47,914 nt of DNA from Candidatus Micrarchaeaceae archaeon (GTDB lineage Archaea; Micrarchaeota; Micrarchaeia; Micrarchaeales; CABMGC01): NCBI GenBank assembly GCA_038873795.1, contig JAVZDR010000001.1, positions 1-47,914 on the forward strand, in the 5' to 3' direction. Numbering within the stretch: the stretch's first letter is position 1; every line of letters begins with the position of its first letter. Shown piece by piece: positions 14,419 to 46,580 of this stretch. The notes under the pieces are model-generated. The model was not told the DNA's origin. It was given only the letters and a program-made list of their open reading frames with translations, and searched no databases. Both the position numbers and the translations under genes were made by a program.

Positions 14419-16178
14419 CTTGTATAGTTAAGAAGCATGTAAAGCGCTGGTGCATTCCCTGTCGACGTTTCTGATCCCTGCACAATCAGCTTCGTCTTAT
14501 ATTCCTCCAATGTATATTTGCATGCGGTGCTGTGGTATGGCGGCACCAGGCACCAGTAACCATAATCGAACACAAAACAGTTGTATTTTGACAGTGTGTC
14601 TGTAAAGTTGGCATTCAAAGAGCCAAGATAGCCCATCTGCGCAGAGCTTCTGTTCACTTCATACCATATATCAGGAGTGAAAGAAAAAACAAGGCAGTTC
14701 GCAGGCACTTTGCTGTAGTTTGCATAGAAGAAATTCATTGCTGGCAGTATGACACCTTGCTGCGGCATGCTCTCAGGCGCGATGGTTGTAATCGGCATCA
14801 GGAGTGCAAACGGCACAAATATTGCCGCAACAACGACAGCTGCAAACACAGCATATCTGTATTTTGCGTATCTGGAAGGGAAGTAAACTACTACTGTTTT
14901 AGCGCTGGGCCTGCGCCTGATGCGGAGCATGTAGATAAGCTTGCCTGAAGCATCACTGAGTTCGGCAATGCCAACTCCTGCAAGTATTGCAATTCCTGGA
15001 AGCAGCTGAAGCATGAATCTGCTATCTACCCCATAAGTTGCAGCACCTGCATAGAAAGCTGTATAAAAGGCGAAGTAAGCAAGAATCCACAGGCCTAGCA
15101 GGAGCATTGCAGAGAATCTGTTCTTTTCTCTTGCATAGAAAGCAAGGAAGGCTGCGCCAATCAATGCAAGCAGCGTTGTTTCCCAAGGGAATACAATAGG
15201 GTAGCTGTAAATGTTGTTGTATGCACCTGAGAAGAAGTCCACATTAGGCATTAAATTCGCAGCGAAGTTTGAGAGTGAAATGATGCTCTGATTTGATGGC
15301 TGCCCATACTGTGGGGATTGAAGTTCAGATGCAAGGTAATAAACCTGTGGAATCATCATTACAATGAAAGCCAGGAAAACAACGAGCGTTTTAGTGTCTG
15401 AATTTATTGCATAGTTTATCTTAGGCAGCCTCATGCTTATGGTCTTTTTGATTCCACCCTTGCCAAAGGCAAGCATTAGTATTGCAAACAGAGCTATCAG
15501 TAATGCCCCCTCTGACCTCGCATACGCAGCCAGGACAAGGCTGAACATGAATGCTGTCAGCGTTTTTCTGTTGGTATGCTCTGCAAACACAACAAAAAGG
15601 AAGAATGCTATAGTCGAAAGAAGCATGAAATACGGGTCTGGATCTGCCTGCGTCCTAGACCATATGAAGAGCATAGGTGTGAGCGCGAATGCAAATGTTG
15701 AAGCAACTGCTATGTCATTCCTCTTGAACATAGCATATGCAAGCCCGAAGACCGCGACTATCGAAATTGCGCCTATGAGCAGCTGCATGTTATACGCGGT
15801 TGTTGTGCCTATGCCGAAGATTGCAAAAGCCATGGCTATGAAGAAAGATATTTCTACAGGATCATGGTAAATGGCATTTTCAAAGCAGCTGTGCAGATAG
15901 CCCGTGCCATATTGGCACCACAGCGCATTGCCATGCATGAGAATGTTGAGCGCAATGCCCTGGTAAATATTCTCGTCGAAGTACAGTTGCTCCACGGGCT
16001 TGACAAGTACAAGCGCAAACACGAGAAAAAACACAAGCGTCGCAATCAGCGCAATCATTGCGCCTCTGCTTACCCCAGCTATTGACTTCCTGATTTCCCG
16101 CCTGGCCAAAAACAGCGATACAATAAGACCTATAAATGAGACGGCAAAGACGGAAGTAAAAGCATAGCCCAAGATCAT
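14415..16178 (-). CDS. GT-C fold membrane glycosyltransferase (PMT/ArnT-like)
   Basis: 587 aa, more than 10 TM helices. First extracytoplasmic loop carries YFDENIYQG (the DE motif of PMT_2/ArnT-like GT-C enzymes). Cys-rich C-terminal soluble domain. Start overlaps the upstream stop as ATGA. Confidence 0.65.
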   Translation of the reverse strand: MILGYAFTSVFAVSFIGLIVSLFLARREIRKSIAGVSRGAMIALIATLVFFLVFALVLVKPVEQLYFDENIYQGIALNILMHGNALWCQYGTGYLHSCFENAIYHDPVEISFFIAMAFAIFGIGTTTAYNMQLLIGAISIVAVFGLAYAMFKRNDIAVASTFAFALTPMLFIWSRTQADPDPYFMLLSTIAFFLFVVFAEHTNRKTLTAFMFSLVLAAYARSEGALLIALFAILMLAFGKGGIKKTISMRLPKINYAINSDTKTLVVFLAFIVMMIPQVYYLASELQSPQYGQPSNQSIISLSNFAANLMPNVDFFSGAYNNIYSYPIVFPWETTLLALIGAAFLAFYAREKNRFSAMLLLGLWILAYFAFYTAFYAGAATYGVDSRFMLQLLPGIAILAGVGIAELSDASGKLIYMLRIRRRPSAKTVVVYFPSRYAKYRYAVFAAVVVAAIFVPFALLMPITTIAPESMPQQGVILPAMNFFYANYSKVPANCLVFSFTPDIWYEVNRSSAQMGYLGSLNANFTDTLSKYNCFVFDYGYWCLVPPYHSTACKYTLEEYKTKLIVQGSETSTGNAPALYMLLNYTS

Positions 16179-17878
16179 GCAACTGCCTTCTTGTTCTCAA
16201 CAAAGTAATTTCCAAGGAACATGTACCTCGTGCCTGTTTTCTTCATGGTCTCTATCGCATCATCAGGGCTCATGACTATAGGCATGCCATGTATATTGAA
16301 GCTTGTGTTTAACACTACCCCATAACCCACATCTTTCGCAACGTTTTCAAGAAGGAGCCTGTAATCCTTGTTTTCATTGCCAACCATCTGCGGCCTTGCT
16401 GTCATATCAACATGCACCACTGAGCGCATGAGGTCAACCTTGTCTTTTTTTACCTCATAAGCCATAGTCATAAACTTGTCATAGCCTTTCACATCTTCAA
16501 GGAGGTCCTTCGCATTCTCAACAAGCATCGATGGCGCGAATGGCTGGAACCATTCTCTCTTTTTTACGTAAAGGTTAAGTTTGTCCTTTACAGTCTCTGA
16601 AGAAGCCTTTGCAAGTATGCTCCTGTTGCCCAGGGCCCTCGGCCCGTATTCCATCCTGCCTTGGAACCAGAAGATATAGTTGTCGTCATTTAGCAGCTCT
16701 GCTGCATGAGAGCTCTTTGCATTATCATACTCATAACTCAGATCCTTTGCCTTCTTCAGGGAGCTTTCTATCTCACTTTCTGTATACGATGGCCCAAAAT
16801 AGACATCATCGAATTTATAAGAACTTATGCCATTAAGCATATAATTTGCGTACATCGCAGCCCCCATAGCCATTCCCCCATCGCCCATGTGCGGGAAGAC
16901 GAACCACCTCTTGAGCTTTTCCAGCTTCCTTATCTTCATGTTCGCCTTTACGTTAGACATTGTGCCTCCAGCTACTGCCACATCGCCTATGCCAAACTCA
17001 TCCAAAACATTCTCGAAGAACTTCTGGAGCACCTTCTCAAGGAGCTGCTGGGCCATATAAGCAAACTGCTCCCTTGGCGTTCCCCAGCTTATCGCATCCA
17101 GCATCTTGAATTGCTTCACATGCGAGTATTTCGCTATTATATCTATGCCCTCCACTCTGAAGAAATCCTTCAGCTTGTTATCCTCGAACTTGAACGGATA
17201 CGAGTAATCAGCCATTGCCATTATCTTGCCCTCGTCCTCAAGCTCCCTCATGCCGAGTATGTTTGTGACCTGCTCATAGAAGATGCCTATCGAGTTTTTT
17301 GCGGGCAGCGCATGTTGCCTTTCTAGCCTCCCATTTTCAAGTATGCTTATGGACCCGCTGAGTCCATCGCCTAGCCCATCAAGCGTCACAACAAGCGCTT
17401 TCTTGAAGCCTGATGCGAAGGCCGCCGTAGCCGCATGCGCAGTGTGATGGTCGATAGCATAGATCTTGAAATTCTCAAATCCTGCATGCCTCAGGTTCTG
17501 CGAAACTATGGCCTTGCTTATACTGTTGCAGAGGGGCAGCACCCCTACCTGCGTCAAAGTGTACTTGAGGTAATGCCGCGCATTGTCAAAGCTCGGCCTG
17601 AGCATCTTCCTCCTTCTGTATGCGTAGTAATATTCCTTTGAGTAAGGCATTATCCTCTCAATGGTTTTTGTAAACTCTGTAGTGGGAAATGCAACTACGT
17701 CTACTTCCTTAGGTTTTATTCCTGCAAAATCGAGTGCTGCCTTTATTGAATTGTAAGGGAAATTTACCTCTAGTTTCCTCTTTGTAAATCTCTCCTCGTT
17801 TGCAGCAAACACTATCTTGTTTCCATCAAGTAGTGCGGCACCAGAATCATGACCGTCCCAGATTCCTAAAACGTACAT
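16175..17878 (-). CDS. NodU/CmcH-family carbamoyltransferase, paralog 1
   Basis: ASKHA/Kae1-like N-terminus GIWDGHDSGAAL...NEERFTKRK, DHHTAHAATAAF, TLDGLGDG, GRMEYGPRALGNRS, and C-terminal LNTSFNIHGMPIV. Confidence 0.85.
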   Translation of the reverse strand: MYVLGIWDGHDSGAALLDGNKIVFAANEERFTKRKLEVNFPYNSIKAALDFAGIKPKEVDVVAFPTTEFTKTIERIMPYSKEYYYAYRRRKMLRPSFDNARHYLKYTLTQVGVLPLCNSISKAIVSQNLRHAGFENFKIYAIDHHTAHAATAAFASGFKKALVVTLDGLGDGLSGSISILENGRLERQHALPAKNSIGIFYEQVTNILGMRELEDEGKIMAMADYSYPFKFEDNKLKDFFRVEGIDIIAKYSHVKQFKMLDAISWGTPREQFAYMAQQLLEKVLQKFFENVLDEFGIGDVAVAGGTMSNVKANMKIRKLEKLKRWFVFPHMGDGGMAMGAAMYANYMLNGISSYKFDDVYFGPSYTESEIESSLKKAKDLSYEYDNAKSSHAAELLNDDNYIFWFQGRMEYGPRALGNRSILAKASSETVKDKLNLYVKKREWFQPFAPSMLVENAKDLLEDVKGYDKFMTMAYEVKKDKVDLMRSVVHVDMTARPQMVGNENKDYRLLLENVAKDVGYGVVLNTSFNIHGMPIVMSPDDAIETMKKTGTRYMFLGNYFVENKKAVA

Positions 17879-17939
17879 TAGATCATAAGTAAATAGGATT
17901 CATCTTTTATAAATCTTTCAAGGCGTGGCCAGCGTCTAT

Positions 17940-19001
17940 CTATTTGATCATTGTTTTGATGTCCCCGACAATCGCCTGGTATGCCTCGCAAGCTGTCCAG
18001 CTCTGAGGCTCCTTGCCCTCTTTTATGATCTTCCTTACCATGTTTGCTTCATCATTGTGCCACATCCCCTCAAGGCTATATCCAAAATCCCTTATGTTGC
18101 CTATCTTCCTGCTCCACATTATTGACGGATAGACATTGCCGTAGCTGTCGAGGAAGAGCGATGCATCGAGGCTCCTGCTCTTTATCGGGCTTTTCCCGGT
18201 TCTAAGGTACTTGACAAGCAGCCTCAGGAAAGTCCCTTCTATTGCTGGTATTGATCCAAACTCGAAGCGCCTCTTCTTAATGTATGCCTCAACCTCATCA
18301 GCCATTGCGGCTGCGTTTGGCAGTATGCTTGCATCAGTGTTGTTGTAATAGATCTCTGAGAGCTGCGCCGCATTTATGTGGAAGTCATTATAGGTCACTT
18401 CAGGTATATCCTTCTTTACCTCCTCATATGTCTTCTCAAGCATTCCTTGGTTCATGCTGCTCATGGTATAGCCAAAAACGACGAATAGATTCTTGCGCTT
18501 TTCCTTGAGCGCCTTTAGCCTCCTGAACATCTCTATCGCTTTGTCGTAGTTGCCCTTAACTCCTCTTATCTCATCATGGAGCTCCCTATAGCCGTCCAGG
18601 CTAACTGTGATAGAGAGCCTTGGAAGCCCAAGATCAAGCATCTGCTCTATCTTTGATATTACCATATCATGGTTTGTTAGCGAATTGGTTGGTATGGTAA
18701 CTATATAAAGGCCCTTTGAATTCTCGTAGAAGGCCCTGACAATCTCTACTATATCGCTTCTCAGGAAGGGCTCGCCACCGGTTATCTCTATCCACCTGAA
18801 CGACCTGTTTTTCCTTGCAAACTCCCTTATCTCATCTATGCTGAGCTCGCCCTTTGGCTTAAGCTGCCATATGTTGCACGTCTTGCACCTGGAATTGCAC
18901 AAATACGATATCGCGAAGGTGAGCTTGTAAGGCTGCTTGAGCTGGGAAAAATTGCTCCTCAGCGCTGTCATTCCAAGTCCAATAAACTTCTTAAAACTCA
19001 C
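17940..19001 (-). CDS. radical SAM enzyme with degenerate SPASM/twitch-like C-terminal domain
   Basis: CNSRCKTCNIW (CxxxCxxC) and ITGGEPFL. The C-terminal SRSLDASLFLDSYGNVYPS fits the SPASM Cx9-15Gx4C spacing, but with Ser at both Cys positions. Confidence 0.85.
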   Translation of the reverse strand: MSFKKFIGLGMTALRSNFSQLKQPYKLTFAISYLCNSRCKTCNIWQLKPKGELSIDEIREFARKNRSFRWIEITGGEPFLRSDIVEIVRAFYENSKGLYIVTIPTNSLTNHDMVISKIEQMLDLGLPRLSITVSLDGYRELHDEIRGVKGNYDKAIEMFRRLKALKEKRKNLFVVFGYTMSSMNQGMLEKTYEEVKKDIPEVTYNDFHINAAQLSEIYYNNTDASILPNAAAMADEVEAYIKKRRFEFGSIPAIEGTFLRLLVKYLRTGKSPIKSRSLDASLFLDSYGNVYPSIMWSRKIGNIRDFGYSLEGMWHNDEANMVRKIIKEGKEPQSWTACEAYQAIVGDIKTMIK

Positions 19002-19017
19002 AATGCCCCCTCAATAA

Positions 19018-19048
19018 CTTAATTAAGCTTTCTTAATATATAAATATT
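19018..19048. promoter_or_regulatory. divergent promoter region (two TATA-like boxes) between the radical SAM and GT2 genes
   Basis: CTTAATTAAG lies about 26 nt from the minus-strand start (19001). TTAATATATAAATATT lies about 26 nt from the plus-strand start (19069). Both mRNAs are probably leaderless. Confidence 0.45.
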
Positions 19049-19068
19049 GCTCCGTCTAAGGTCAGTCC

Positions 19069-19752
19069 ATGCAAGCAAAAAGACCCTATATATCGATTGT
19101 GATACCAACGTTAAATGAGGCCAAGAACATAGGCATTGTTATAAGCAATGTAAAAAAGGCGCTTGATGGCTACAGCTACGAGATAATTGTCGTGGACAAG
19201 CACTCGAAGGACAACACCGCGGGCATAGCAAGGCGCCTTGGCGCGAGGGTCTTATACGACGATATTGGAAAGGGATCCGCACTGATAAAAGGCATGACTG
19301 CAAGCAAGGGCTCGATAATAATCTCAATGGATGCTGACCTTTCGCACAGGGCTAACGAACTCAAGCTGCTCATAACTGCGATAGAGGCTGGCTATGACAT
19401 AGCTATGGGCTCAAGGTTCATAATGGGCGGCGGCACTGAGGACATGCCGCTGATAAGGAAGATAGGAAACAAGTTCTTCGTGGGCCTTGTCAATCTTCTC
19501 TTCCATGCAAACTACACAGACATGTGCTACGGCTATAGAAGCTTTAGAAGGGGGGTGCTACAAAAGCTCAACCTAAATGAACTCGGCTTCGGGATAGAAA
19601 CTGAGATAAACATAAAAGCGATGAAGAAAGGGCTCAATGTCATAGAGATACCGAGCTTCGAGAAGAAGCGTGCATCCGGAAGCGGTAACCTAAGGACATT
19701 CAGGGATGGCTACATAATCCTAAAGACCATTCTCAAGAACTTAGGTAGCTAG
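19069..19752 (+). CDS. GT2 glycosyltransferase, dolichyl-phosphate hexose synthase-like (Dpm1/AglD-like)
   Basis: SIVIPTLNE, IIVVDKHSKDNT and SMDADLSH (DxD). 227 aa, soluble. Confidence 0.85.
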   Translation: MQAKRPYISIVIPTLNEAKNIGIVISNVKKALDGYSYEIIVVDKHSKDNTAGIARRLGARVLYDDIGKGSALIKGMTASKGSIIISMDADLSHRANELKLLITAIEAGYDIAMGSRFIMGGGTEDMPLIRKIGNKFFVGLVNLLFHANYTDMCYGYRSFRRGVLQKLNLNELGFGIETEINIKAMKKGLNVIEIPSFEKKRASGSGNLRTFRDGYIILKTILKNLGS

Positions 19753-31669: not shown

Positions 31670-32497
31670 ATGCTTAGGCATCCCGCAGTTGCTGGTACAT
31701 TCTACCCTAATGATCCAGCATCGATAAGGAAGTTCATCAGCAATGCAATCGAAGAAGCCAATTTAAATGTGGATGCAAGCAATGCGCTCTCATTTGTGGC
31801 TCCCCATGCTGGCTATATCTACTCTGGAAGGATAGCCGCATATACCTACAAGGCCGTTAGAGATATGCTTTCGCGCAGGAAAATAGACACATTTGTAATA
31901 ATAGGCCCAAACCATACAGGATATGGCGCTCCAGTAGCCATTTCAGGCAAGGACTGGGAAACACCTCTTGGTGTTGTTAAGAATGATATAGAACTCTCGA
32001 ACAAAATAGCCGAGCACAGATTTGTAACAATTGATGACGATGCACATGAATACGAGCATTCGGTAGAGGTTCAGCTGCCTTTCCTGCAGATGGTCGCAAA
32101 AGAGCCGAAATGCACCTTCATATGCATGGGTGATCAGTCTCTCGAAGCGAGCAGGGCACTGAGCAGCGCCATCGTGGATGCAAGCAATGCGCTCGGGCGG
32201 AGCATAGCTGTCATAGCGAGTTCTGACTTCAACCATTATGAGTCAGCGAAGACTGCCGAAAAGAAAGACCTGCCCGCCATAGAATACTTGACGAAGCTCG
32301 ACTACATAAGCTTCAATTCCGAGATATCTAGATCAGGTGATACAGCGTGTGGCTATGGCCCTATAACCGTTGCGGCGATTACCGCAATAGAAAGGAAGGC
32401 AAAGAAGGGGATCCTGCTCAAGTACGGCAATTCAGGAGATGAAACTAAAGACTATTCTTCTGTCGTCGCCTATGCCAGCATAATCTTTACCGCATGA
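31670..32497 (+). CDS. MEMO1-family protein (AmmeMemoRadiSam system protein B)
   Basis: HPAVAGTFYP, APHAGYIYSG, IGPNHTG, HEYEHSVEVQLPFL. Confidence 0.85.
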   Translation: MLRHPAVAGTFYPNDPASIRKFISNAIEEANLNVDASNALSFVAPHAGYIYSGRIAAYTYKAVRDMLSRRKIDTFVIIGPNHTGYGAPVAISGKDWETPLGVVKNDIELSNKIAEHRFVTIDDDAHEYEHSVEVQLPFLQMVAKEPKCTFICMGDQSLEASRALSSAIVDASNALGRSIAVIASSDFNHYESAKTAEKKDLPAIEYLTKLDYISFNSEISRSGDTACGYGPITVAAITAIERKAKKGILLKYGNSGDETKDYSSVVAYASIIFTA

Positions 32498-33173
32498 GGG
32501 GCTTCTCTGCAGCTATCATGAAGCCAAGGCCAAAACCTAGGCTCTCCTTCTCTATATTCGAAAAACCAGCCTGTTTCAGAAGGGCGACCACATTCTCCAT
32601 GTTTACCTCGAAGTAGCTACTGTGCACATATCTCTCAATCTCGTTCTTTATTTCAGACTGTGAGATAGGCATTATCCTAAAGTAGTAATAGGTGTTTATG
32701 AGCCTCCTTATAAAAGTGCTTCTGTGGGCGTTTAGGTCCATTAGCAGGACTTTGCCCCCTGGCTTCAACATATCGAAGATATTCCCAATCACGCTCCTGA
32801 GGTCTTCGAATTCGCCGAGCGAAAAAGTCGACGTCACGTAGTCAAATTTTGTACTGAACCCCTTATACTTCTCAGCGTTACCTTCTATATATCTTACATT
32901 TTTCAGTCCGCTGCTTTTTTCCTTTGCTATTTTCAGCATTTTGGCATTGAAATCCAGGCCTATGACCTTATAGTTCTTGTAATGTTTTGCTATCGCTATT
33001 GCAGTTTCGCCGGTCCCAGTGGCCAAGTCGAGCACTGTTGCACTTCTGCTTGCGCCAAGCTTCTTGAGCATTTTTCTCCTCCACACTCTGCCCAGTCCGA
33101 ATGTCAGGATGTTATATACCTTGTCATAGTTTATACTAATCACTGAGTAGAACTTTTCAAGTGAACTTTCCAT
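32487..33173 (-). CDS. class I SAM-dependent methyltransferase (UbiE/MenG-like)
   Basis: YD..YN..TFGLGRVWRR N-terminal pattern and SAM motif VLDLATGTGE. I prefer the ATG at 33173 over the TTG at 33221 used by the ORF track. Confidence 0.8.
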   Translation of the reverse strand: MESSLEKFYSVISINYDKVYNILTFGLGRVWRRKMLKKLGASRSATVLDLATGTGETAIAIAKHYKNYKVIGLDFNAKMLKIAKEKSSGLKNVRYIEGNAEKYKGFSTKFDYVTSTFSLGEFEDLRSVIGNIFDMLKPGGKVLLMDLNAHRSTFIRRLINTYYYFRIMPISQSEIKNEIERYVHSSYFEVNMENVVALLKQAGFSNIEKESLGFGLGFMIAAEKPLMR

Positions 33174-33265
33174 ACACTCCAAATCCAATAAGGAAGAATA
33201 ATTTATTAAATACTCTTTCAAAATACATTATACTCAAATGCCGATATGAGGAATTGGTGCGGTAT

Positions 33266-34990
33266 ATGGCTATAATAGGGATACATGATGCGCATGATGC
33301 AGGTGCTGGAATCGTAAAAGATGGCAAGGTGATAGGCGCCGTGAATGAGGAGCGCTTTACAAAACTTAAAAATGATGTTGGTTTCCCTAGGAATTCGATA
33401 CGTTACCTGCTCAGCGAGCTAGAAAATGAGGAAATTGAGAAAGTTGCCATACCTTGGATAGGCGGCAGCGCGCTTTTTGCGCGCATCATGCCCAGCTTGG
33501 AGGTAAAAAGAAGGAAGCTGTGGAGGAAAGAGATAAAGAAGCCCTCTCTCTTCCGCATGCACCTGACTAACATTGCCTTCAGGCTTTTGCAGAACCAGAA
33601 TCCTAAGAGCATGTGGCATTACCTCGGCGAAGGCATCGGCGGCTATGTGATGAGGAAGAGGCTAGAGTCTATAGGCTTAAACAGGAAAATAGTTTTTGTG
33701 GACCACCATACGGCCCACGCCGCTTCCGCATACTATGCATCAGGCTTCAAGGAGGCGCTTGTCATAACCCTCGATGGCGCAGGCGACGGCCTTTCAGGGA
33801 GCATATCCATAGGTGACAACGGGAGCTTGAAGCGCATCAACCAGTTCGACGCAAGCTCAAGCATAGGCATACTATATGGTGCAGCTACAATAGCCTGCGA
33901 CCTAAGGTACAGCGAAGACGAGGGCAAGCTGATGAGCCTTGCAGCATATTCATATCCAGCTGAAATAAAGGAGCTTGAAGGAATTGTAAGATATGATGAG
34001 AAGAAAAGGCAGCTGGTAAGCGGCACAGGCAGAAAGTATGAGTATTTGCTTGCTGAGTACATGAAGAATGAGCTCCTTTGGAGATATAACAGGGAAGCTT
34101 TAGCCTATGCTGTGCAGAGGCACGTAGAAAACCAGGTTTTGAAGATAGTCAAGCAGTACATAAAGGAAACAAAGATCGCAAACATAGCCGTTGCTGGTGG
34201 CTTCTTCTCAAATGTGATAGTAAATATGCTGATAAACCAGCTGCCAGAAGTCAAGAATTTCTTTGTATTCCCCCATATGGGTGATGGCGGACTTGCGCTT
34301 GGCGCCGCATATTATGTCGATTTCATCGAAAACGGAAAATTCAACAGGAGGCAGATTGAGAATGTCTATTTTGGCCCTTCCTATACAAATGAGGAGATTG
34401 AGAAGGAATTGAAGAAGGCTGGCAAAAAGATCAGATACGAAGAGGTGAAGGATATAGAGAGATATGCCGCAGAAAGGATAGCAAAGGAGAATAAGATCCT
34501 GCTATGGTTCCAAGGCAGGATGGAATACGGGCCGAGGGCCCTGGGCAACAGGAGCGTTCTGGCTCTTGCAAATGATCCCAAAAACAGGAACGAAGCCAAC
34601 TTAATAATCAAACGCAGACCATACTACCAGCCTTTCGCAAGCACCATACTAGAGGAGGATGCGAGCGAGCTTCTAAATCCATACCCTCGGGGCACTAAAT
34701 TCATGACAATCGCCTACAATGTGGATGAAGACCACAGGGAGGATCTTGTCGCTGCGTCGCACATAGACGGCACGACAAGGCCGCAGGTGCTTGGCGCAGA
34801 GAACAGGATCTACAGAAGGCTAATAGAAAACATAAAGCGCGAGATAGGAATTGGGGCGATACTTAATACAAGCTTCAACAAGCATGGGAAGCCGATAGTA
34901 ATGAGCCCAGAAGATGCCATATGGACCCTCCTTAATACAGGCGCAAAGTATATGGCGATAGGCAATTACTTTGTAGAGAAAGTGATTTGA
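33266..34990 (+). CDS. NodU/CmcH-family carbamoyltransferase, paralog 2
   Basis: GIHDAHDAGAGI...NEERFTKLK, VDHHTAHAASAYY, TLDGAGDG, GRMEYGPRALGNRS, LNTSFNKHGKPIV. Start moved to the first ATG (33266); the 35 codons upstream look non-coding. Confidence 0.85.
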   Translation: MAIIGIHDAHDAGAGIVKDGKVIGAVNEERFTKLKNDVGFPRNSIRYLLSELENEEIEKVAIPWIGGSALFARIMPSLEVKRRKLWRKEIKKPSLFRMHLTNIAFRLLQNQNPKSMWHYLGEGIGGYVMRKRLESIGLNRKIVFVDHHTAHAASAYYASGFKEALVITLDGAGDGLSGSISIGDNGSLKRINQFDASSSIGILYGAATIACDLRYSEDEGKLMSLAAYSYPAEIKELEGIVRYDEKKRQLVSGTGRKYEYLLAEYMKNELLWRYNREALAYAVQRHVENQVLKIVKQYIKETKIANIAVAGGFFSNVIVNMLINQLPEVKNFFVFPHMGDGGLALGAAYYVDFIENGKFNRRQIENVYFGPSYTNEEIEKELKKAGKKIRYEEVKDIERYAAERIAKENKILLWFQGRMEYGPRALGNRSVLALANDPKNRNEANLIIKRRPYYQPFASTILEEDASELLNPYPRGTKFMTIAYNVDEDHREDLVAASHIDGTTRPQVLGAENRIYRRLIENIKREIGIGAILNTSFNKHGKPIVMSPEDAIWTLLNTGAKYMAIGNYFVEKVI

Positions 34991-36195
34991 TGAAAGCGGG
35001 CAGCATAGCCCTAATAGTCATTGATACACTGAGGCTAGACGAATTCGAAAAGCTGGAAAAGAGATATGGCATGATAGGCGCTCTTGGCAATGCAACATTC
35101 ATGAAGAACTGCATAGCCCCGTCGCCGTGGACCCTGCCATCGCATGCATCGATCTTCACAGGCCTTTATCCAAGCGAGCATGGAGCGCATGAAACAAGCA
35201 GAATAAAATCCCTTGACATAGAAAGCATAAAGCTCAAGATGCCGACCTTTGTCTCAGAGCTGAATGAATTGGGCTTCCATACATATGCCATTTCTGCAAA
35301 CCCATACGTCCACCCTGTATATGGCTTTACTGATTTTGGCTCATTCACGGAAGAGCCCTATTTTACTGACATATTTGGCAGTGTGGTTGAAGTCTCCAAT
35401 AAGCTCAAGCCGATCATAGCCAAATACAGGAATCTTTACGGCAACAATATGCTGAAAATATCGGGCAGCATCCTTAGCGAGGAGCCCGAGCTGCTGCTTG
35501 AAGTTCTTGCAAGCGCATCAGTGCACACGCCAGTAGCAATGCTAAAGAAGGTCAAAGCCAAGGTCTTCGAGGGATGGCCTATAGAAAAGGGTGGTTCTCG
35601 CATACTCAAGAGAGTGAGAGAGACGCGCTTCATTGCCCCTTACTTTATTTTCATAAACCTGATGGAGGCTCATGATCCTTATGTGGGCAAGAAGAATGCA
35701 GATTTCAACTGGGCAACGCCTTTCCAGAAAGAGAAGCCGAGCCAAAGCAAAATCGCCACATGGAGGAAACTGTATTCAAAGGCAGCACTGAGGGGCTACA
35801 AGTATGCAGCCGAGATAGCGAAGAGCCTGCTCGAGAGGTACGGCGACAACCAGCTTATAATATTTACCAGCGACCATGGCCAGGCATTGGATGAGCATGG
35901 CTTTGTGGGTCATGGCACAGTGCTCTACGACGAAATTGTAAGGGTACCGTTTGCGGCGGTCTCGCCAAATCGCATCGGCACGAAGGGCAGCCAAGGCAGA
36001 TACTGCTCGCTTGCCAATACAAGAAAGTTCATATTCAGCTATTTGGATGGCGATGAGAATGCCGCTGCCAGACTTTACTCAAGGAGAGTCTATTCACAGA
36101 GTTTTGGCATACCTGCAAACATAAGCTTTGCCCCTGGGATAGACGCAAGCAAGGTAAAAAGATTCGAGACGAAACGCGTGAGGAGGTTTATTTGA
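34990..36195 (+). CDS. alkaline-phosphatase-superfamily (sulfatase-like) hydrolase/transferase with Thr nucleophile motif
   Basis: Metal ligands VIDTLRLD and TSDHGQALDEHGFVGHG. Nucleophile segment WTLPSHASIFTG aligns to the sulfatase C-[TS]-P-S-R-x-x-L-x-TG but reads T-L-P-S-H. ATG overlaps the upstream TGA (TGATG). Confidence 0.75.
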   Translation: MKAGSIALIVIDTLRLDEFEKLEKRYGMIGALGNATFMKNCIAPSPWTLPSHASIFTGLYPSEHGAHETSRIKSLDIESIKLKMPTFVSELNELGFHTYAISANPYVHPVYGFTDFGSFTEEPYFTDIFGSVVEVSNKLKPIIAKYRNLYGNNMLKISGSILSEEPELLLEVLASASVHTPVAMLKKVKAKVFEGWPIEKGGSRILKRVRETRFIAPYFIFINLMEAHDPYVGKKNADFNWATPFQKEKPSQSKIATWRKLYSKAALRGYKYAAEIAKSLLERYGDNQLIIFTSDHGQALDEHGFVGHGTVLYDEIVRVPFAAVSPNRIGTKGSQGRYCSLANTRKFIFSYLDGDENAAARLYSRRVYSQSFGIPANISFAPGIDASKVKRFETKRVRRFI

Positions 36196-37421
36196 TAAAA
36201 CCAAGAGTATTAGTAATGGACCTGGGTTCGCGCACAAACATATTCGGCGGCGAAGCCCGGATAGCAAGCATCCTCTACAGAGGCCTGAAAGAGTATTTCG
36301 AGACGAGCTACCTTGGCTATGAGACTGAGTACATAAAGGCTGGGAAAGATACAATCATGCTGAGCAGAGGGGCAAAGTCCTGGCAGGGGCCTGCAGTAAA
36401 GAAGAGGGGTTTATCAGAAAACTGGTTTATGCGCTTTGGGTATTTCTTCCTGATGGGCAGGAACATGCTTGATATGGGCATCGAAAGGGAAAAGCTTGCA
36501 AAAAAGGTCAAGCTTCTCTCCCCAGATATAGTAATTTCAAATTCTGTCTGGGACTTCTCAACGCTCAGATACATAAAAGGCTATGTAGACTTCAAAACAA
36601 TCTTTATAGACCATGCATGCATTTCAAACAGCAATGCCCCAGGATATTTAAGCAAGACGAACATGCCTTTGACGCTGGGCACTGGGATTTTTGGCAGCAG
36701 CATAGGCTCAATTAAGTCCAAGTTCTTCAGGTATTTTGATGCGTGCGTAGCCCTAAGCAAGGTCCAGCTTAAGGAGATCTCAAAATTCACAGATAAAGTC
36801 TACTATATCCCGAATGGCCTTGACATTAATACAAAACACGATAGGAAAGCAGAGGAAAGGCTGAGGGAGCGTTACGGGCTGGGCAGCTCCAATTTCATCA
36901 TACTCTACCTTGGAAGGATGTTTGAGAGGCAGAAGAATGTGAGCACGCTGATAAAAGCATTCATGCGCCTCAAGGGCAGGAGGCTTCGCCTTCTGCTTGT
37001 GGGCGGAGGCCAATCTGTTACAGACTACATAAAGCTCGCTTCAAAGGATCGTAGGATCATATTTACAGGCGAAGTGCCTGAAGAAAGCCTGCCCCATTTG
37101 TACAATATCTCAAACTTGTTTGTTCTGCCCTCGGCATGGGAAGGTTCCAACCTGACAATAATAGAGGCAGCCGCCCATGGATTGCCTATAATAATATCAG
37201 ATAACGCATATTCGGATGATTTGAAAGATCCAAGCATAGGAAAATTGGTTTCATTTAAGACATTCAATAGCAATGACCTTGCAGATAAAATAGCATTCAT
37301 GCTAAGCCACAAATCGGCTATGAATGCAGCAATTGCCTCTTCCAGAAAGATAGCGAAAAGGTTTACAGAGCGGTCAATGCTTAAAAGATATTATTCGCTA
37401 ATATCGAGATTGGTTAGGTGA
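36192..37421 (+). CDS. GT4 (GT-B fold) glycosyltransferase
   Basis: Ex7E region PSAWEGSNLTIIEAAAHGLPII. TTG start preceded by AGGAGG at a 5-nt spacing, and overlaps the upstream stop by 4 nt. Confidence 0.85.
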   Translation: MIKPRVLVMDLGSRTNIFGGEARIASILYRGLKEYFETSYLGYETEYIKAGKDTIMLSRGAKSWQGPAVKKRGLSENWFMRFGYFFLMGRNMLDMGIEREKLAKKVKLLSPDIVISNSVWDFSTLRYIKGYVDFKTIFIDHACISNSNAPGYLSKTNMPLTLGTGIFGSSIGSIKSKFFRYFDACVALSKVQLKEISKFTDKVYYIPNGLDINTKHDRKAEERLRERYGLGSSNFIILYLGRMFERQKNVSTLIKAFMRLKGRRLRLLLVGGGQSVTDYIKLASKDRRIIFTGEVPEESLPHLYNISNLFVLPSAWEGSNLTIIEAAAHGLPIIISDNAYSDDLKDPSIGKLVSFKTFNSNDLADKIAFMLSHKSAMNAAIASSRKIAKRFTERSMLKRYYSLISRLVR

Positions 37422-38622
37422 CTATTCCGAGCCCGGCAAATTTCCCTCCCTCATAGATTGTGAACCTTCCAAGTTCATTTACCTTGTTGTATTTTTCCAC
37501 TACGATGGGCTTGCTGCAATTTATATGCGCGCTAAATATGCCAAGGGGCTTTGCATTGCCCTTTTTCAAATTGCCATCATTTATATCGAGCTCCTTGCTT
37601 ATAGTTATGTTGCATCTTGTTTCTATGCCATTTAGCCTCATTGATGCATTTTTTGGGATTTCGGAGAAGAAAACGAGGGCATCAATGCTTTTGGCAACCA
37701 TCGGCTTATCCCCAGCTCTGCAGATCACGCTGCCTCTCTTTATGCCTTTGGTGCTGCTTAGCGACAGCACTGGCGATGAACCAGCAGAGGCATGCACCAT
37801 GACCTTTCCGGCGCTCACAATTTTATTCACAATGCATTCAGTGCCACCAGGCACAGAAATAACCTTCTCGCCTTTTGAGAGAGTGCCTGCAACGACTTTG
37901 CACGCGAAGCCGCCGCCAGGCATTGCGCCCTGCACAATAACCCGCAAGATGCCGCCTTTCTCATCCTTGCATTTCTCCATTGCATCTCTGCTCAGAATCT
38001 CAGCTAATGGTTTGCCCTTGTACCATCTCATATTCTTAGAATTCCTGATCAGATTGTCACCATTGTAAGCTGAAATGGGTACAAAATCAGTCCTCACCGC
38101 ACCCAGTGATTTTTGTGCATTGTTTATGAATTCACTGAGGCTGCTTTTTATTGAGTCAAAGGCATTGCTATTGTAGCCAACCGCATCCATCTTGTTGATT
38201 GCAATAACAACATTGCTTATCCCAAGCATCATTGCAACCAGAAGGTGGCGTTTGGTCTGCTCGCTTATTCCCTCGCCTTTCTTTGCAGATACCACAAGCA
38301 CCGCGATGCTGGCGCTGGATGCGCCGGTGAGCATGTTGGTTATGAGCTCCTCGTGACCCGGCACATCTATAAGTTCAAACCCTACTTTTTTGTATGAGAG
38401 CTGCGCCCTTGTGGTGTCTATAGTCATAGCTTTCTCACGCTCCTCGGAGAAGCTGTCAAGTATGAAGCCTGGCTCAAATTTCCTGCCAAGCTCCTTGCTT
38501 ATGCGCCGGGCCTCGTTTATTCTGTCGCTGCTAACGCTCTTTGTAAGCATGAGCATGCTGCCTATGAATGTTGATTTTCCATGGTCTTTGTCGCCAAGCA
38601 GCACAATTCTATGGAGATACAT
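37414..38622 (-). CDS. cysN: sulfate adenylyltransferase subunit 1 (CysN/NodQ-type GTPase, no APS-kinase domain)
   Basis: G1 GDKDHGKST, DSFSEEREKAMTID, G3 DVPGHE, G4 NKMD. Collinear with E. coli CysN by eye. 402 aa, so no fused CysC. Confidence 0.85.
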   Translation of the reverse strand: MYLHRIVLLGDKDHGKSTFIGSMLMLTKSVSSDRINEARRISKELGRKFEPGFILDSFSEEREKAMTIDTTRAQLSYKKVGFELIDVPGHEELITNMLTGASSASIAVLVVSAKKGEGISEQTKRHLLVAMMLGISNVVIAINKMDAVGYNSNAFDSIKSSLSEFINNAQKSLGAVRTDFVPISAYNGDNLIRNSKNMRWYKGKPLAEILSRDAMEKCKDEKGGILRVIVQGAMPGGGFACKVVAGTLSKGEKVISVPGGTECIVNKIVSAGKVMVHASAGSSPVLSLSSTKGIKRGSVICRAGDKPMVAKSIDALVFFSEIPKNASMRLNGIETRCNITISKELDINDGNLKKGNAKPLGIFSAHINCSKPIVVEKYNKVNELGRFTIYEGGKFAGLGIVT

Positions 38623-38639
38623 ATAGCTCGCTTGCCAAT

Positions 38640-39428
38640 CTACATATACCCAAGGCTTCTCAACCGCTGCATCACGTATTCCCTCTCTTTGTCTTGCTCC
38701 CTGCCAGCGCGCTCCTCTACGTTCGTTGTGCTAAGTTCTTTTATTATTTTATTAAGATTTTTTGCATCCGATTTTATCGGCACTGTGCAGTGGGTGCAGC
38801 CAAGGCTCCTATATCTATAGCCGTTCCTTGAGAAATATAGTGGATTTATAGGGATATGCTCCCTCCTTATGTACCTCCATATGTCGATTTCATTCCAATC
38901 GAGCAGAGGATGCACGCGCACATGGCCCCCATCCTCTATCTTGGAAGAATAGTCGTCCCAGAGTTCAGCAGGCTGGTTTTTATAGTCCCACCTGAAGTTT
39001 CTATCCCTAGGCGAGAGATAGCGCTCCTTCGCCCTGATTGAATGCTCATCTCTTCTTATCGAGACGATGAGTGCATTAAACTTGTATTTCCTCATCACTT
39101 CCTTCAGCGCTATTGTTTTGTTGGCCCCGCAGCAGCTGAAGCCGGATATTTCAGGCTTTATCTTGCTTTTTGCAACTATGAGATTAAGGCCCCACTTTTT
39201 GGTCAAGTCTTCCCTAAATTTATATGTTTCTGGAAAGTCTATCGAATTGTCTATGTGTATGACTGGAAATGGAACCTTGCCCATGAACGCCTTCCTTGCA
39301 AGAGCAAGCATCGTTGTTGAATCCTTGCCCATGCTCCAGAGGGCTGCAATATTCTTGAATTTCATCTTTGCTTCTCTCATTATGTAGATGCTCTTTTCTT
39401 CGAGTTCATTCAAATTCTGCTCTATCAT
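38640..39428 (-). CDS. cysD: sulfate adenylyltransferase subunit 2 (CysD/NodP-type PP-loop)
   Basis: LEEKSIYIMRE, WSMGKDST, FPVIHIDN, SIRRDEHSIRAKER, RVHPLLDWNEIDIWRYI, RSLGC..CT, and C-terminal ...LGYM (E. coli ends ...QGYF). Confidence 0.9.
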   Translation of the reverse strand: MIEQNLNELEEKSIYIMREAKMKFKNIAALWSMGKDSTTMLALARKAFMGKVPFPVIHIDNSIDFPETYKFREDLTKKWGLNLIVAKSKIKPEISGFSCCGANKTIALKEVMRKYKFNALIVSIRRDEHSIRAKERYLSPRDRNFRWDYKNQPAELWDDYSSKIEDGGHVRVHPLLDWNEIDIWRYIRREHIPINPLYFSRNGYRYRSLGCTHCTVPIKSDAKNLNKIIKELSTTNVEERAGREQDKEREYVMQRLRSLGYM

Positions 39429-39435
39429 AAAATCA

Positions 39436-39777
39436 CTAAAAAATGTTCGCGTTTCGCAAGCCCTTCAGATATATTGTAGCGCCCTCTATAGCATTTCCCT
39501 TGCGCTTTATTATTGGTATCTTGGCTACTTGCCTCATCCTGGAATCGTAAAGCAGCGCAAATGACTTCGTCAAGTCCTGGCTGTTTTTTAGCGTTTTATA
39601 GACAATCTTGTAATATTTTACCTTGCCGCTATTGATCGAAGAATAGAGCTTCTCCCAGTTTTTTTCGCTAGGGTCGGCCCAAAGGTTGGCCGCAATTACT
39701 TCTAGATCGCTACTTTTCGCGTCCCTGCGCCCCGCATTTCTTTTTTCCATTCTTACCATAGTAGCACCATCAGACAT
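39436..39777 (-). CDS. hypothetical protein (113 aa), first gene upstream of cysD
   Basis: Basic N-terminus followed by a mixed alpha/beta-looking region (GKVKYYKIVYKTL...). No motif I can name. 8-nt overlap with the upstream RHH gene and a 7-nt gap to cysD. Confidence 0.45.
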   Translation of the reverse strand: MSDGATMVRMEKRNAGRRDAKSSDLEVIAANLWADPSEKNWEKLYSSINSGKVKYYKIVYKTLKNSQDLTKSFALLYDSRMRQVAKIPIIKRKGNAIEGATIYLKGLRNANIF

Positions 39778-40009
39778 ATCCCAAAGCTCTGAGTTTCTTT
39801 ACTATCCCGCTTTTCACTGCCTTTTCTCTGCCTGACCCACTCCTGCTCTCTTCTATCTCAGCCAGTGTCTCCCTTATTATATACGTAACGTAGTCTGAGA
39901 CAGAGGAGAATCCAGTACGCTTGATTAATTTTAGCAGCTTGTCATACATGGGTTTCGGTATTGTTATTGTCGTATATTTCCTCTTTTCAGATTCCTTTTT
40001 CGCTTCCAT
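39770..40009 (-). CDS. ribbon-helix-helix (CopG/MetJ-type) DNA-binding protein
   Basis: KYTTITIPKPMYDKLLKLIKRTGFSSVSDYVTYIIRETL is a beta-strand/helix/helix RHH pattern. Start placed at ATG 40009 (MEAKKE...) because the upstream 19 codons look like AT-rich promoter. Confidence 0.7.
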   Translation of the reverse strand: MEAKKESEKRKYTTITIPKPMYDKLLKLIKRTGFSSVSDYVTYIIRETLAEIEESRSGSGREKAVKSGIVKKLRALGYV

Positions 40010-40094
40010 AAGCTTACCTATAATGTAATTTAATGTTATTGCATTAAAATATAAAAATCTATGCATTCAAAAGGTTCTGTGCAATATTGTGGCA

Positions 40095-42165: not shown

Positions 42166-42303
42166 TTTTCCACGCTGCAAACCTGTGTTTGTTTTTGACC
42201 AGGCATACTTAATATGTGCATTAGGCCTAGGGCGAGAGCTCAGATAGCCATGCCGAAATAGCAGCATAATATATTTTTTGCCACATTGCTAAATAGCGAG
42301 GGC

Positions 42304-43278
42304 ATGCAGAAACGCTTGGTTTTAGTATTGATTGCAATAGTTTCCGCAATTGTAATTGCGATAGCGCTCATCGCAATTGCTGCGGAAAATACTTCCTTGG
42401 AAATACCGAAATCCTTAGATTTCACCATCGGCGTATGCACCCACGGAAATGAAAGCTCTGAAGTATTCGCGCTAAATCACGGAGTGAAATACCTGCGCAC
42501 AGATGTGTCGTTAAGTGCCAATCAGGAAAAACTTCTCGATCTTGAGCACTTTCAATACGGGGCTAACTATTTGGGCATACTCGATTACAATACAGTTCCA
42601 AGCAAGGATTGGAATCTCAGCCAATGGAATGCCAGCATTGAGCAGGTTCTGGCTGAATATCCATGGATAACCGCATGGGAGATATGGAACGAGCCCATGG
42701 TAAGTCAGTTTCAGACAGGCTACCTAAATGGCAGCCCGTACAACTATTATGAGATAATAAAAAGTGCTTATACAATAATAAAGGCCAGAGAGCCCAATGC
42801 CACCATAGTCTGCTTTGGAGGCGCCCCGATTGCGAACCAATACGCATATTACTGGTATTCCCAGGTATGGGCCTACGGCGCGGCAGAGTATTGCAATGCC
42901 ATATCGATACATGCGTATCCGCAGACCATGGGTCCGCTAAACAGCACAAGCATCAAAGAATGGAAAGAAAGCCTATACGAATATGAAAATCTTACAAGCA
43001 AGCCGATATGGATCACGGAATTTGGTATTCCGTCCTCATCAGAGCTCATATCAGGCTATACCCCAAAACTGCAGGAAGAGTTCCTTGTGGGCAGTCTGTC
43101 GCTCTTCAACAGCATGAGCTTTGTAAAACGCGTGTATTGGTATGATTTATGGGGGCTGTCAGATGGGGCACTAGGCAACAATTTCGGGCTTCTAAACCTT
43201 TCAGATCCATCTTCAAGCGTTGCCACGCCAGCGTGGGGCGCATTTCTCTACGCATACTTCAACAGCACTTCAGACTGA
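42304..43278 (+). CDS. membrane-anchored clan GH-A (TIM-barrel, GH5/GH39-like) glycoside hydrolase
   Basis: Acid/base WEIWNEP and nucleophile IWITEFG. N-terminal TM anchor. 10 sequons. ATG at 42304 preferred over TTG at 42286. Confidence 0.7.
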   Translation: MQKRLVLVLIAIVSAIVIAIALIAIAAENTSLEIPKSLDFTIGVCTHGNESSEVFALNHGVKYLRTDVSLSANQEKLLDLEHFQYGANYLGILDYNTVPSKDWNLSQWNASIEQVLAEYPWITAWEIWNEPMVSQFQTGYLNGSPYNYYEIIKSAYTIIKAREPNATIVCFGGAPIANQYAYYWYSQVWAYGAAEYCNAISIHAYPQTMGPLNSTSIKEWKESLYEYENLTSKPIWITEFGIPSSSELISGYTPKLQEEFLVGSLSLFNSMSFVKRVYWYDLWGLSDGALGNNFGLLNLSDPSSSVATPAWGAFLYAYFNSTSD

Positions 43279-46473: not shown

Positions 46474-46580
46474 AGCCCTGAGAGGGGCTTGAACCCTCGA
46501 CCTCCTGTTTTCTTGTTCTTGATTAAACTTCTTCCCAAGAAGTTTACAAGACAGGCGCTCTACCACTGAGCTACCAGGGC
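46474..46580 (-). tRNA. tRNA-Thr (anticodon TGT) with 35-nt canonical intron
   Basis: Acceptor GCCCTGG/TCAGGGC, D-arm GCTC/GAGC, anticodon stem CCTGT/ACAGG separated by 42 nt, T-arm GAGGG-TTCAAGC-CCCTC, discriminator T. TATA-like box about 26 nt upstream (around 46605). Confidence 0.9.
46510..46544 (-). other. tRNA intron at canonical position 37/38
   Basis: Intron AACTTCTTGGGAAGAAGTTTAATCAAGAACAAGAA. CAAG pairs with anticodon-loop CTTG and is flanked by 3-nt bulges (TA|A and AA|A). Confidence 0.8.

Follow-up and report, generated by a model that had tools for sequence, protein, structure and literature searches.

Introduction

Biological sulfation is known to proceed from 3′-phosphoadenosine 5′-phosphosulfate (PAPS) through PAPS-dependent sulfotransferases, or by aryl-sulfate transfer. 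In the rhizobial system for Nod-factor decoration (NodU; NodP/NodQ/NodH), a NodU/CmcH-family carbamoyltransferase and a CysDN-type ATP sulfurylase are encoded near glycosyltransferase genes, and the same combination is found at positions 33266-40009 of the first 47,914 nucleotides (nt) of contig JAVZDR010000001.1 (GCA_038873795.1), a stretch called the window below. The contig belongs to a Micrarchaeaceae genome (DPANN archaea) assembled from a metagenome. A first-pass annotation had likened this island to the Nod-factor system and had regarded its sulfurylase as a bacterial form, unusual for archaea, with a carbamoylated and/or sulfated surface glycan as a reasonable product. The likeness to Nod-factor decoration proved to be loose: the carbamoyltransferase does belong to the NodU/CmcH family, but it scores 90.3 bits against the NodU model (NCBIfam NF041651), far under the cutoff of 1000, it recurs at only 6 of 52 comparable loci, and neither a NodH-like sulfotransferase nor an adenosine 5′-phosphosulfate (APS) kinase domain was found in the window. 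A sulfated and/or carbamoylated glycan as the product is likewise unproven.

Bacterial and archaeal CysDN systems offer closer comparisons. At five reference bacterial cysDN loci, the sulfurylase genes are adjoined by varying sets of CysH, CysQ, and CysC, the last either free-standing or fused to CysN, whereas the partners here are a ribbon-helix-helix (RHH) protein, an orphan small protein, and an enzyme of the alkaline phosphatase (AP) superfamily, with no CysC fused or adjacent. Among archaea, CysDN has already been reported in anaerobic methanotrophs (ANME-1 and ANME-2) and a few methanogens, in which the GTPase clusters with CysN and not with EF1A, an APS kinase was detected, and the system was interpreted as assimilatory and partly horizontally acquired (PMC6286981); archaeal CysDN by itself is therefore not new. 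Compared by published description only, those systems share the adjacent CysD and CysN with this locus, but no APS kinase was found in the flanks here. CysN has been regarded as the one clear case of an archaeal EF1A that moved to bacteria and took on a new function (PMC4342817).

The sulfurylase genes of the window belong to a four-gene cassette, encoding the RHH protein, the orphan protein, CysD, and a GTPase, that is present in all 80 Micrarchaeota species genomes retrieved and is, judged by sequence and tree position, a deep-branching, conserved Micrarchaeota-wide CysDN clade. The function proposed, tentatively and at slightly less than even confidence, is that of an autoregulated, GTP-driven ATP sulfurylase of deep-branching type that would feed glycan sulfation, with the neighboring AP-superfamily enzyme possibly using APS directly.

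Organization of the locus

The island comprises seven genes (coordinates are those of the window):
33266-34990, plus strand: NodU/CmcH-family O-carbamoyltransferase, 574 amino acids (aa) (Pfam Carbam_trans_N/C)
34990-36195, plus strand: cytoplasmic AP-superfamily enzyme with sulfatase fold and predicted Thr nucleophile (Pfam Sulfatase)
36192 (TTG) or 36216 (ATG) to 37421, plus strand: GT4 glycosyltransferase (Glycos_transf_1)
37414-38622, minus strand: EF1A/CysN-like GTPase, 402 aa (GTP_EFTU)
38640-39428, minus strand: CysD-type ATP sulfurylase catalytic subunit, short form, 262 aa (PRK05253)
39436-39777 (start at 39777, 39759, or 39750), minus strand: orphan small protein, about 100 to 113 aa, companion of CysD
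39770-40009, minus strand: RHH protein, 79 aa (weak RHH_1 match)

Open reading frame (ORF) coordinates and a base-by-base reading agree with the seven genes, positions, and junctions given at first pass, and profile searches of the proteins bear out the gene identities, weakly so for the RHH protein. On the plus strand, a TGATG (34988-34992) is common to the carbamoyltransferase stop and the AP start, and the AP stop TGA (36193-36195) overlaps by 4 nt with a possible TTG start of the GT4 gene at 36192; the NCBI gene call for GT4 uses ATG 36216, which leaves a 20-nt gap after the AP stop. The two gene sets converge with an 8-nt overlap at 37414-37421 (GT4 stop 37419-37421, GTPase stop 37414-37416); no intrinsic terminator was found at this junction, nor were RNA elements detected by Rfam in the island region. 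On the minus strand, the RHH stop overlaps the first ATG of the orphan gene (spacing of -8 nt), and the gaps between the orphan gene and CysD and between CysD and the GTPase are 7 and 17 nt. The RHH start at ATG 40009 matches the public gene call, the mechanical ORF start falling within the RHH promoter. Contig JAVYSW010000001.1 of GCA_038729005.1 carries a gene for a GTPase identical to that of the window.

Conservation of the cassette and its neighbors in Micrarchaeota

One genome per species was scanned, which yielded 80 loci, all from Micrarchaeota. CysD is 71 to 89% identical across these loci and almost always 262 aa long, and the public names of close homologs are all Micrarchaeota. By tblastn, the RHH, orphan, and GTPase genes were detected at 75, 75, and 78 of the 80 loci, with most apparent absences at contig ends. 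The cassette is thus present in every Micrarchaeota genome retrieved despite genome reduction, and it is probably important for the cell surface that mediates host contact in these symbiotic DPANN archaea.

Neighboring genes were counted at the 52 Micrarchaeota loci with at least 6 kb of downstream sequence, an AP-superfamily gene being scored within 10 kb. Such a gene occurs at 35 of them, either of the window type (15 loci) or of a roughly 500-aa PF01663 “PDE” (phosphodiesterase) type (20 loci), and never both. GT4 occurs at 24 loci, 22 of which also have an AP-superfamily gene, and all six carbamoyltransferase loci have one as well. Unbiased ORF clustering returned GT4 (28 loci), AP (26), and PDE (23) as the top neighbors after the cassette genes themselves, ahead of the synteny anchors Memo (21), endonuclease III (EndoIII; 19), and threonyl-tRNA synthetase (ThrRS; 18). 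The AP-superfamily gene is found in both orientations, right after the GTPase or several genes off and once upstream of the cassette (L082), and both AP and GT4 stay near the cassette through inversions and transpositions. Because the cassette occurs in 80 genomes and the AP and GT4 neighbors recur, the arrangement is not due to chance; accidental adjacency of the two operons is rejected by these neighborhood statistics. The proposal that the two gene sets belong together therefore holds for the AP enzyme and GT4, the commonest further neighbors in related genomes, and is weak for the carbamoyltransferase, which is a minority, lineage-specific addition to the module.

The window-type AP enzyme and the PDE type are only remotely related and share none of the 52 loci, which suggests that within the superfamily one type has displaced the other. 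The remaining island content is variable and includes nucleotide-sugar enzymes, GHMP kinase, methyltransferases, and a large multi-pass membrane protein without a Pfam match that may be a glycosyltransferase; by analogy, this is the content of a typical surface-glycan locus.

The module beyond Micrarchaeota

When CysD was searched against 1.84 billion representative proteins, 247 clusters were returned at E<=1e-30, many of them 254 to 290 aa long with the cysteine tetrad and LGYM tail described below. One locus from this search (L097) carries rhamnose genes, GT2s, a homolog of the orphan protein (E 6e-24) adjoining a CysD without a GTPase, a WTLPSH-type AP enzyme 30% identical to that of the window (E 2e-40), an epimerase, GT4, and GT2. 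At another (L099), PDE and a TauE permease lie with CysD in a cluster that also contains GT2, AglB, an epimerase, and DegT; L098 has GT4, CysD, and TauE, and L096 has CysD and the GTPase only.

A metagenome scan added 80 further loci (0.6 Mb together with L096 to L099), for which flanking Pfam domains were uninformative as to taxonomy. Clustering of their neighbors returned the GTPase at 56 loci, PDE at 38 (49 copies), a tailed RHH protein at 23, TauE/TSUP permeases at 22, a short AP enzyme at 11, and the window-type AP enzyme at 6, along with epimerases, GT4, UDP-sugar dehydrogenase, flippase, and PstB-like genes. Where at least 3.2 kb of downstream sequence was available (36 metagenome loci), the GTPase is present at 29 and an AP-superfamily gene at 30, the latter usually on the same strand just past the GTPase. 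Even where CysD identity is down to about 45%, the association is seen within glycan clusters whose gene contexts are unrelated.

CysD and its cysteine tetrad

CysD of the window matches Pfam PAPS_reduct (2e-40) and exceeds the cutoff of NCBIfam NF003587/PRK05253 (309.9 versus 195 bits), while falling below the stricter CysD cutoffs (TIGR02039, 229.5 versus 396.6 bits; NF009214, 232.3 versus 413 bits). It aligns over its full length (residues 5-201 and 202-261) with Pseudomonas syringae CysD (1ZUN_A; E 3e-55), its PP-loop SMGKDS is intact (S.GKDS in 79 of 80 relatives), and the gene that adjoins it downstream encodes a GTPase of the CysN lineage.

Micrarchaeota CysD sequences were aligned with five bacterial CysD proteins and one APS reductase (Tsukamurella CysH). 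In this alignment, the cysteines of SCCGANKT and GCTHCT in CysD occupy the same columns as the CC...CxxC ligands of the [4Fe-4S] cluster in APS reductase. The tetrad is present in 80/80 Micrarchaeota CysD proteins, 77 of which have no cysteine beyond it, and in 79/81 metagenome copies, whereas bacterial CysD has none of these cysteines. CysD of this type probably carries a [4Fe-4S] site, which by the alignment would lie near the sulfate or APS pocket.

With the [4Fe-4S] APS reductases (CysH of the Mycobacterium/Pseudomonas type), the window CysD shares the PAPS-reductase fold, the CC...CxxC columns, and the lack of the two insertions found in bacterial CysD. In contrast to them, it has an intact PP-loop and a CysD-like C-terminus and overall similarity, and the C-terminal catalytic ECGLH of APS reductase is absent from it, the protein ending in ...RLRSLGYM. 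In the bacterial heterodimer CysD-CysN (Escherichia coli; P. syringae 1ZUN; rhizobial NodP/NodQ), as here, a PP-loop CysD is paired with an EF1A-derived GTPase, and that CysD aligns with the window protein end to end, including the C-terminal GY# pair; the window protein, 262 aa long, lacks the two insertions and has the CC...CxxC cysteines. No published descriptions of an Fe-S CysD were found.

The GTPase and the origin of CysDN

The GTPase matches GTP_EFTU (1e-36) and has intact G1, G3, and G4 motifs (GDKDHGKST, DVPGH, and NKMD). It lies below all curated cutoffs (TIGR02034, 239 versus 336.1 bits; NF003478, 230.9 versus 590 bits; EF-1alpha, 249.9 versus 502 bits) and scores nearly equally on EF-1alpha and CysN models (250 versus 239 to 244 bits); against solved structures, its match to archaeal EF1A (202 bits) is slightly above that to CysN (172 bits). 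The P-loop is EF1A-like, GDKDHGKST in the window and GHKDHGKST or GHVDHGKST in relatives, and does not match the CysN-type G(S/N)VDDGKST; two deletions, in turn, are common to the GTPase and CysN. The window GTPase thus differs from bacterial CysN in having DHGKS and not VDDGKS and in scoring below the CysN cutoffs, but it falls in the same clade. Its homologs number more than 1000, and among the 120 matches listed, the named ones are nearly all from Micrarchaeota.

Trees were built by neighbor-joining with bootstrap and few reference sequences. In the GTPase tree, the Micrarchaeota proteins (100%) are sister to bacterial CysN (100%), and the pair excludes archaeal EF1A (100%); metagenome GTPases likewise fall inside a 100% CysN-containing clade that leaves out archaeal EF1A. 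In the CysD tree, rooted with CysH, Micrarchaeota CysD is sister to bacterial CysD (99.5% and 93%). When more sequences are sampled, those of bacterial CysN and CysD appear to lie within a grade of the Fe-S type, the deep-node bootstrap being weak in the wider GTPase tree (38 to 55%) and the grade in the CysD tree being read without node evaluation. Since neither subunit falls within the canonical bacterial clades of CysD and CysN, a recent bacterial origin is ruled out; recent transfer of cysDN from bacteria is rejected also on the phylum-wide identity of CysD and on the Micrarchaeota names of nearly all named GTPase homologs listed, and the label of “bacterial form” does not fit this clade. 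The tree positions are consistent with the descent of CysN from archaeal EF1A (PMC4342817). The CysD-linked clade of EF1A-like GTPases, together with a CysD that has the cysteines of APS reductase, makes the origin of CysN directly testable.

At two Micrarchaeota loci, the space between CysD and the GTPase holds a free-standing ORF for a LAGLIDADG homing endonuclease (L005, 9167-9991; L008, 9211-9996), and a wider CysD-GTPase spacing suggests the same insertion in L040 and L086.

The AP-superfamily enzyme and its plus-strand neighbors

The AP enzyme matches Pfam Sulfatase (4e-13), with a weak match to Phosphodiest, and is publicly annotated as a “sulfatase-like hydrolase/transferase.” Its nucleophile motif reads W-T48-L-P-S-H52; W47 to S51 are invariant, and H52 nearly so, in 32 orthologs, in which D12, T48, H228, D295, H296, and H308 are also invariant. 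The formylglycine motif C/S-x-P-x-R of S1 sulfatases is replaced by T-L-P-S-H, so the enzyme is not a canonical sulfatase. The structural model (predicted local distance difference test score [pLDDT], 86.7) finds its closest solved folds among S1 sulfatases, phosphonate monoester hydrolase, and the phosphoethanolamine transferases EptC/ICR. The sulfatase-like fold and the position of T48 together point to a Thr nucleophile on a sulfatase fold, in line with the Thr type named at first pass. On reading, the N-terminus shows no evident signal peptide.

EptA/EptC/MCR-1, LtaS, and S1 sulfatases share the sulfatase fold with the AP enzyme (Foldseek E 1e-13 to 1e-10), and its catalytic residues, a Thr in the place of the nucleophile and Asp/His as metal ligands, resemble those of the Thr-nucleophile transferases among them (EptC and others). 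Unlike these enzymes, the AP enzyme is predicted to be soluble, without a membrane domain or a formylglycine motif, and is tied genomically to an ATP sulfurylase.

The adjacent GT4 protein scores 86.1 bits against Glycos_transf_1 (3e-24; cutoff, 26.4). Both carbamoyltransferase domains are well over cutoff (Carbam_trans_N, 9e-41, 140.9 bits; Carbam_trans_C, 8e-51, 172.3 bits), and the closest solved relatives are NovN, GdmN, and TobZ (E 6e-57 to 5e-50), which have both domains in common with it; those enzymes act on antibiotics, whereas the window protein sits among glycan genes. Its identity as a HypF or TsaD enzyme was considered and rejected, the HypF/TsaD matches being marginal and the NodU/CmcH domains strong, so that the NodU-like assignment made at first pass stands.

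A second glycan cluster lies at 14415-19752 of the window. There, a second NodU/CmcH-family carbamoyltransferase gene (16175-17878, minus strand) overlaps the gene for a PMT_2/GT-C membrane glycosyltransferase (14415-16178, minus strand), adjoined by genes for a radical SAM protein (17940-19001, minus strand) and a GT2 protein (19069-19752, plus strand). Because this carbamoyltransferase is in an operon with a GT-C glycosyltransferase, glycan carbamoylation is plausible in this organism, and on gene content it would not be intrinsic to the sulfurylase module.

Regulator, operator, and orphan protein

The RHH protein matches PF01402 (RHH_1) weakly, at 18.3 bits (E 0.002; cutoff, 20.5). Three sequence elements precede its gene:
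40047-40057, minus strand: TATA-box-like element for the cassette, TTTTTATATTT in minus-strand reading
40031-40046, no strand: palindromic putative operator TAATGCAATAACATTA, between the TATA box and ATG 40009
40021-40030: extra ACATTA half-site after the palindrome

In most of 54 aligned Micrarchaeota RHH upstream regions, CTTTTTATAT(A/T)TT lies directly upstream of the palindrome. The palindrome follows the family consensus TAATGTTATAACATTA, which stands directly after the TATA box phylum-wide and is succeeded by further ACATTA half-sites. Promoter function of the TATA-box-like element and binding of the RHH protein to the palindrome, with repression, are predicted from this conserved pattern; a repressor bound between the TATA box and ATG 40009 would block initiation. 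The RHH gene and the other cassette genes are divergent in some lineages, and a TATA box with a palindrome and a divergent RHH gene is, by analogy, the usual archaeal layout of an autorepressor. The palindrome occurs once in the window and not upstream of the carbamoyltransferase operon, and shared regulation of both operons through this operator was accordingly rejected.

The RHH protein and CysD end alike, in ...KKLRALGYV and ...RLRSLGYM. The LGY tail is present in 80/80 CysD proteins, in at least 57/61 Micrarchaeota RHH copies, and in 28/28 metagenome RHH copies, whereas bacterial CysD ends in ...GYF. A tail of the form ...L(K/R)xLGY# is found also on two-helix DUF2061 membrane proteins (4/5) encoded between CysD and the GTPase in distant relatives, and on 2/49 PDE enzymes of distant relatives (tailed DUF2061 and PDE proteins: L142, 1471-1782; L143, 1791-2099; L146, 1581-1895; L179, 53-343; L156, 11729-13399; L163, 4580-6616). 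This distribution suggests a shared docking peptide. The tail is retained where no GTPase is encoded nearby, so the docking site may be CysD itself. The accessible literature describes no function for the C-terminal end of CysD within the 1ZUN complex.

The orphan protein has no Pfam match and a single NCBIfam match below threshold (E 0.0046); its AlphaFold2 model (pLDDT, 82.5) has no PDB match at E<=0.001, and only 25 homologs were found, all unnamed. Its gene is genuinely missing from the group around the cultured “Candidatus Micrarchaeum” A_DKE. In this group (L063 of A_DKE, 13723-18214), the cassette without the orphan gene is followed by a gene for the small chain of carbamoyl-phosphate synthase and then by an ORF of about 1036 aa, probably for the large chain. 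NodU-type enzymes use carbamoyl phosphate as their donor.

Missing canonical partners

As the first-pass annotation had stated, the window holds no APS kinase, sulfotransferase, or APS/PAPS reductase among the 44 larger ORFs scanned against Pfam, and tblastn with CysC, CysQ, and CysH queries gave no match in it except CysD itself. The same held for the surrounding sequence of the other loci: CysC and CysQ were not found in 1.41 Mb of Micrarchaeota and 0.60 Mb of metagenome flanks, where CysH queries matched CysD only, and no separate sulfite reductase gene was found in these 2.0 Mb. No published literature specific to this cassette in Micrarchaeota sulfur metabolism was found. Haloferax Agl7 was considered as a possible precedent for sulfation by an AP-type enzyme; its protein family is unstated in the papers on it.

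Proposed function and alternatives

Under the tentatively favored function, CysD would adenylate sulfate to APS, and the EF1A-like GTPase would drive this unfavorable reaction, as bacterial CysN does. The RHH protein would act as repressor of the operon from the palindrome next to the TATA box; its tail, which mimics that of CysD, probably allows it to sense, through docking, what state the enzyme complex is in. APS would bypass an APS kinase, the constant partner being the cytoplasmic AP-superfamily Ser/Thr enzyme, which, with GT4 (and the carbamoyltransferase in this lineage), would decorate a glycoconjugate assembled in the cytoplasm. Given the constant pairing of CysD with an AP-superfamily enzyme in a glycan setting without an APS kinase, the simplest reading is that the AP enzyme consumes APS. 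Most likely, a sugar hydroxyl would receive the sulfuryl group directly from APS by way of a covalent intermediate on the enzyme; by analogy within the AP superfamily, such a transfer with Ser/Thr as the covalently modified residue is plausible chemistry. A link to sulfur is favored by TauE/TSUP permeases (sulfite-exporter family) as recurrent CysD neighbors, and a link to the AP enzyme by PDE and TauE beside CysD in the AglB-containing cluster (L099); the CysD-type tail on two PDE enzymes and on DUF2061 proteins makes physical coupling possible. The constant pairing with a sulfatase-like enzyme in glycan clusters, in place of the usual next enzyme, here and in many uncultured microbes, hints at an undescribed mode of cell-surface sugar sulfation. 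If true, an APS-direct route with a sulfatase-fold transferase would be new enzymology and could lead to candidate enzymes for archaeal glycan sulfation.

A wider version of the proposal, which is possible though doubtful, is PAPS-independent sulfation in which Fe-S CysD, with or without the GTPase, would make APS, an AP-type enzyme would sulfate a glycan or glycolipid, the parts would be joined or regulated by way of the LxxLGY# tail (RHH, DUF2061, some PDE), and the Fe-S CysD with its EF1A-like GTPase would be ancestral to bacterial CysDN.

Several points weigh against direct use of APS for glycan sulfation. Members of the AP superfamily with a Ser/Thr nucleophile normally handle phosphate esters, and no published AP-superfamily enzyme that moves sulfate from APS, nor any APS-dependent sulfotransferase, was found. 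About one-third of the Micrarchaeota loci, including that of the cultured A_DKE, have no AP-superfamily gene within 10 kb, and PstB-like ABC ATPase genes, which hint at phosphate, lie a few kb off at seven metagenome loci (L109, L115, L135, L141, L148, L156, and L176). In the window, the two gene sets converge and the carbamoyltransferase promoter has no copy of the operator, so coregulation is not shown there. The searches for missing partners covered flanks, and the genomes could hold cysC, cysH, or a PAPS-dependent sulfotransferase at other sites; for the trees, long-branch artifacts are possible.

The alternative that survives best is ordinary assimilatory sulfate activation, in which APS would go on to sulfide, cysteine, or cofactors and the glycan genes would be adjacent through inherited synteny in a compact genome. 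The clear homology of CysD speaks for it, as do the assimilatory interpretation of CysDN in ANME archaea and methanogens (PMC6286981), the one-third of loci without an AP or GT4 neighbor, and the conserved synteny that Memo, EndoIII, and ThrRS show here. This alternative is nevertheless unlikely: the flanks contain no separate cysH, sulfite reductase, cysC, or cysQ, AP and GT4 outnumber the synteny anchors as neighbors and remain adjacent through rearrangement, and glycan clusters of unrelated gene context show the association again with CysD only about 45% identical. To our knowledge, moreover, Micrarchaeota largely lack amino acid biosynthesis.

It is quite unlikely that the CysD-like enzyme adenylates something other than sulfate, such as a phosphate ester (compare eukaryotic FMN adenylyltransferase), with the AP enzyme acting as a phosphodiesterase or phosphotransferase that adds a phospho-linked glycan substituent, since CysD exceeds the PRK05253 cutoff, aligns end to end with a solved CysD, and has the cysteine tetrad of the sulfate-handling APS reductases, its partner GTPase is of the CysN lineage, and permeases of the TauE family (sulfite/organosulfonate exporters) recur nearby. 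Such a role would nonetheless fit the inclusion of FAD synthase in the PAPS-reductase fold (8rom/8ron matches), the phosphoryl transfer typical of Ser/Thr AP enzymes (NPP, EptC), the PstB-like genes at seven loci, and the scores of CysD and the GTPase below the strictest curated cutoffs.

Improbable, finally, is a hydrolase that would serve the sulfurylase by freeing sulfate from scavenged sulfated compounds, as a cytoplasmic sulfatase or phosphodiesterase, or by removing APS or nucleotide by-products. The S1 sulfatase fold, the public annotation, and the arylsulfatase annotations reported to be widespread in DPANN genomes (PMC8091004) might suggest one, but T-L-P-S-H stands in place of C/S-x-P-x-R, GT4 and nucleotide-sugar genes co-occur with the AP enzyme, and to hydrolyze APS next to an enzyme that makes it at the cost of ATP and GTP would be futile cycling.

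Other features of the window

The cysteine tetrad of CysD, the tail shared by the RHH protein and CysD, the conserved operator, and the wide distribution of the module all lie outside the first-pass annotation. Its remark on dense N-glycosylation sequons in exported proteins is borne out by counts: three proteins (42286-43278, 13561-14418, and 3837-4910) have 3.0 to 3.9 N-x-S/T sequons per 100 aa, versus 0 to 0.7 in cytoplasmic proteins, and those at 42286-43278 and 13561-14418 have an N-terminal hydrophobic segment and look exported.

The gene next to the carbamoyltransferase is the following:
32487-33221, minus strand: UbiE/COQ5-type S-adenosylmethionine-dependent methyltransferase (Pfam Ubie_methyltran, 2e-37)

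A UbiE/COQ5-type methyltransferase is a frequent gene at the island edge (13 loci), between the glycan genes and Memo, and its role in the island is uncertain. Some HIT enzymes act on APS; a HIT-family protein is encoded at 10707-11189 of the window, and a HIT gene lies also two genes past the cassette in L003. Rfam additionally reports a tRNA of 107 nt at 46474-46580 (minus strand), probably intron-containing and unreported by ARAGORN.

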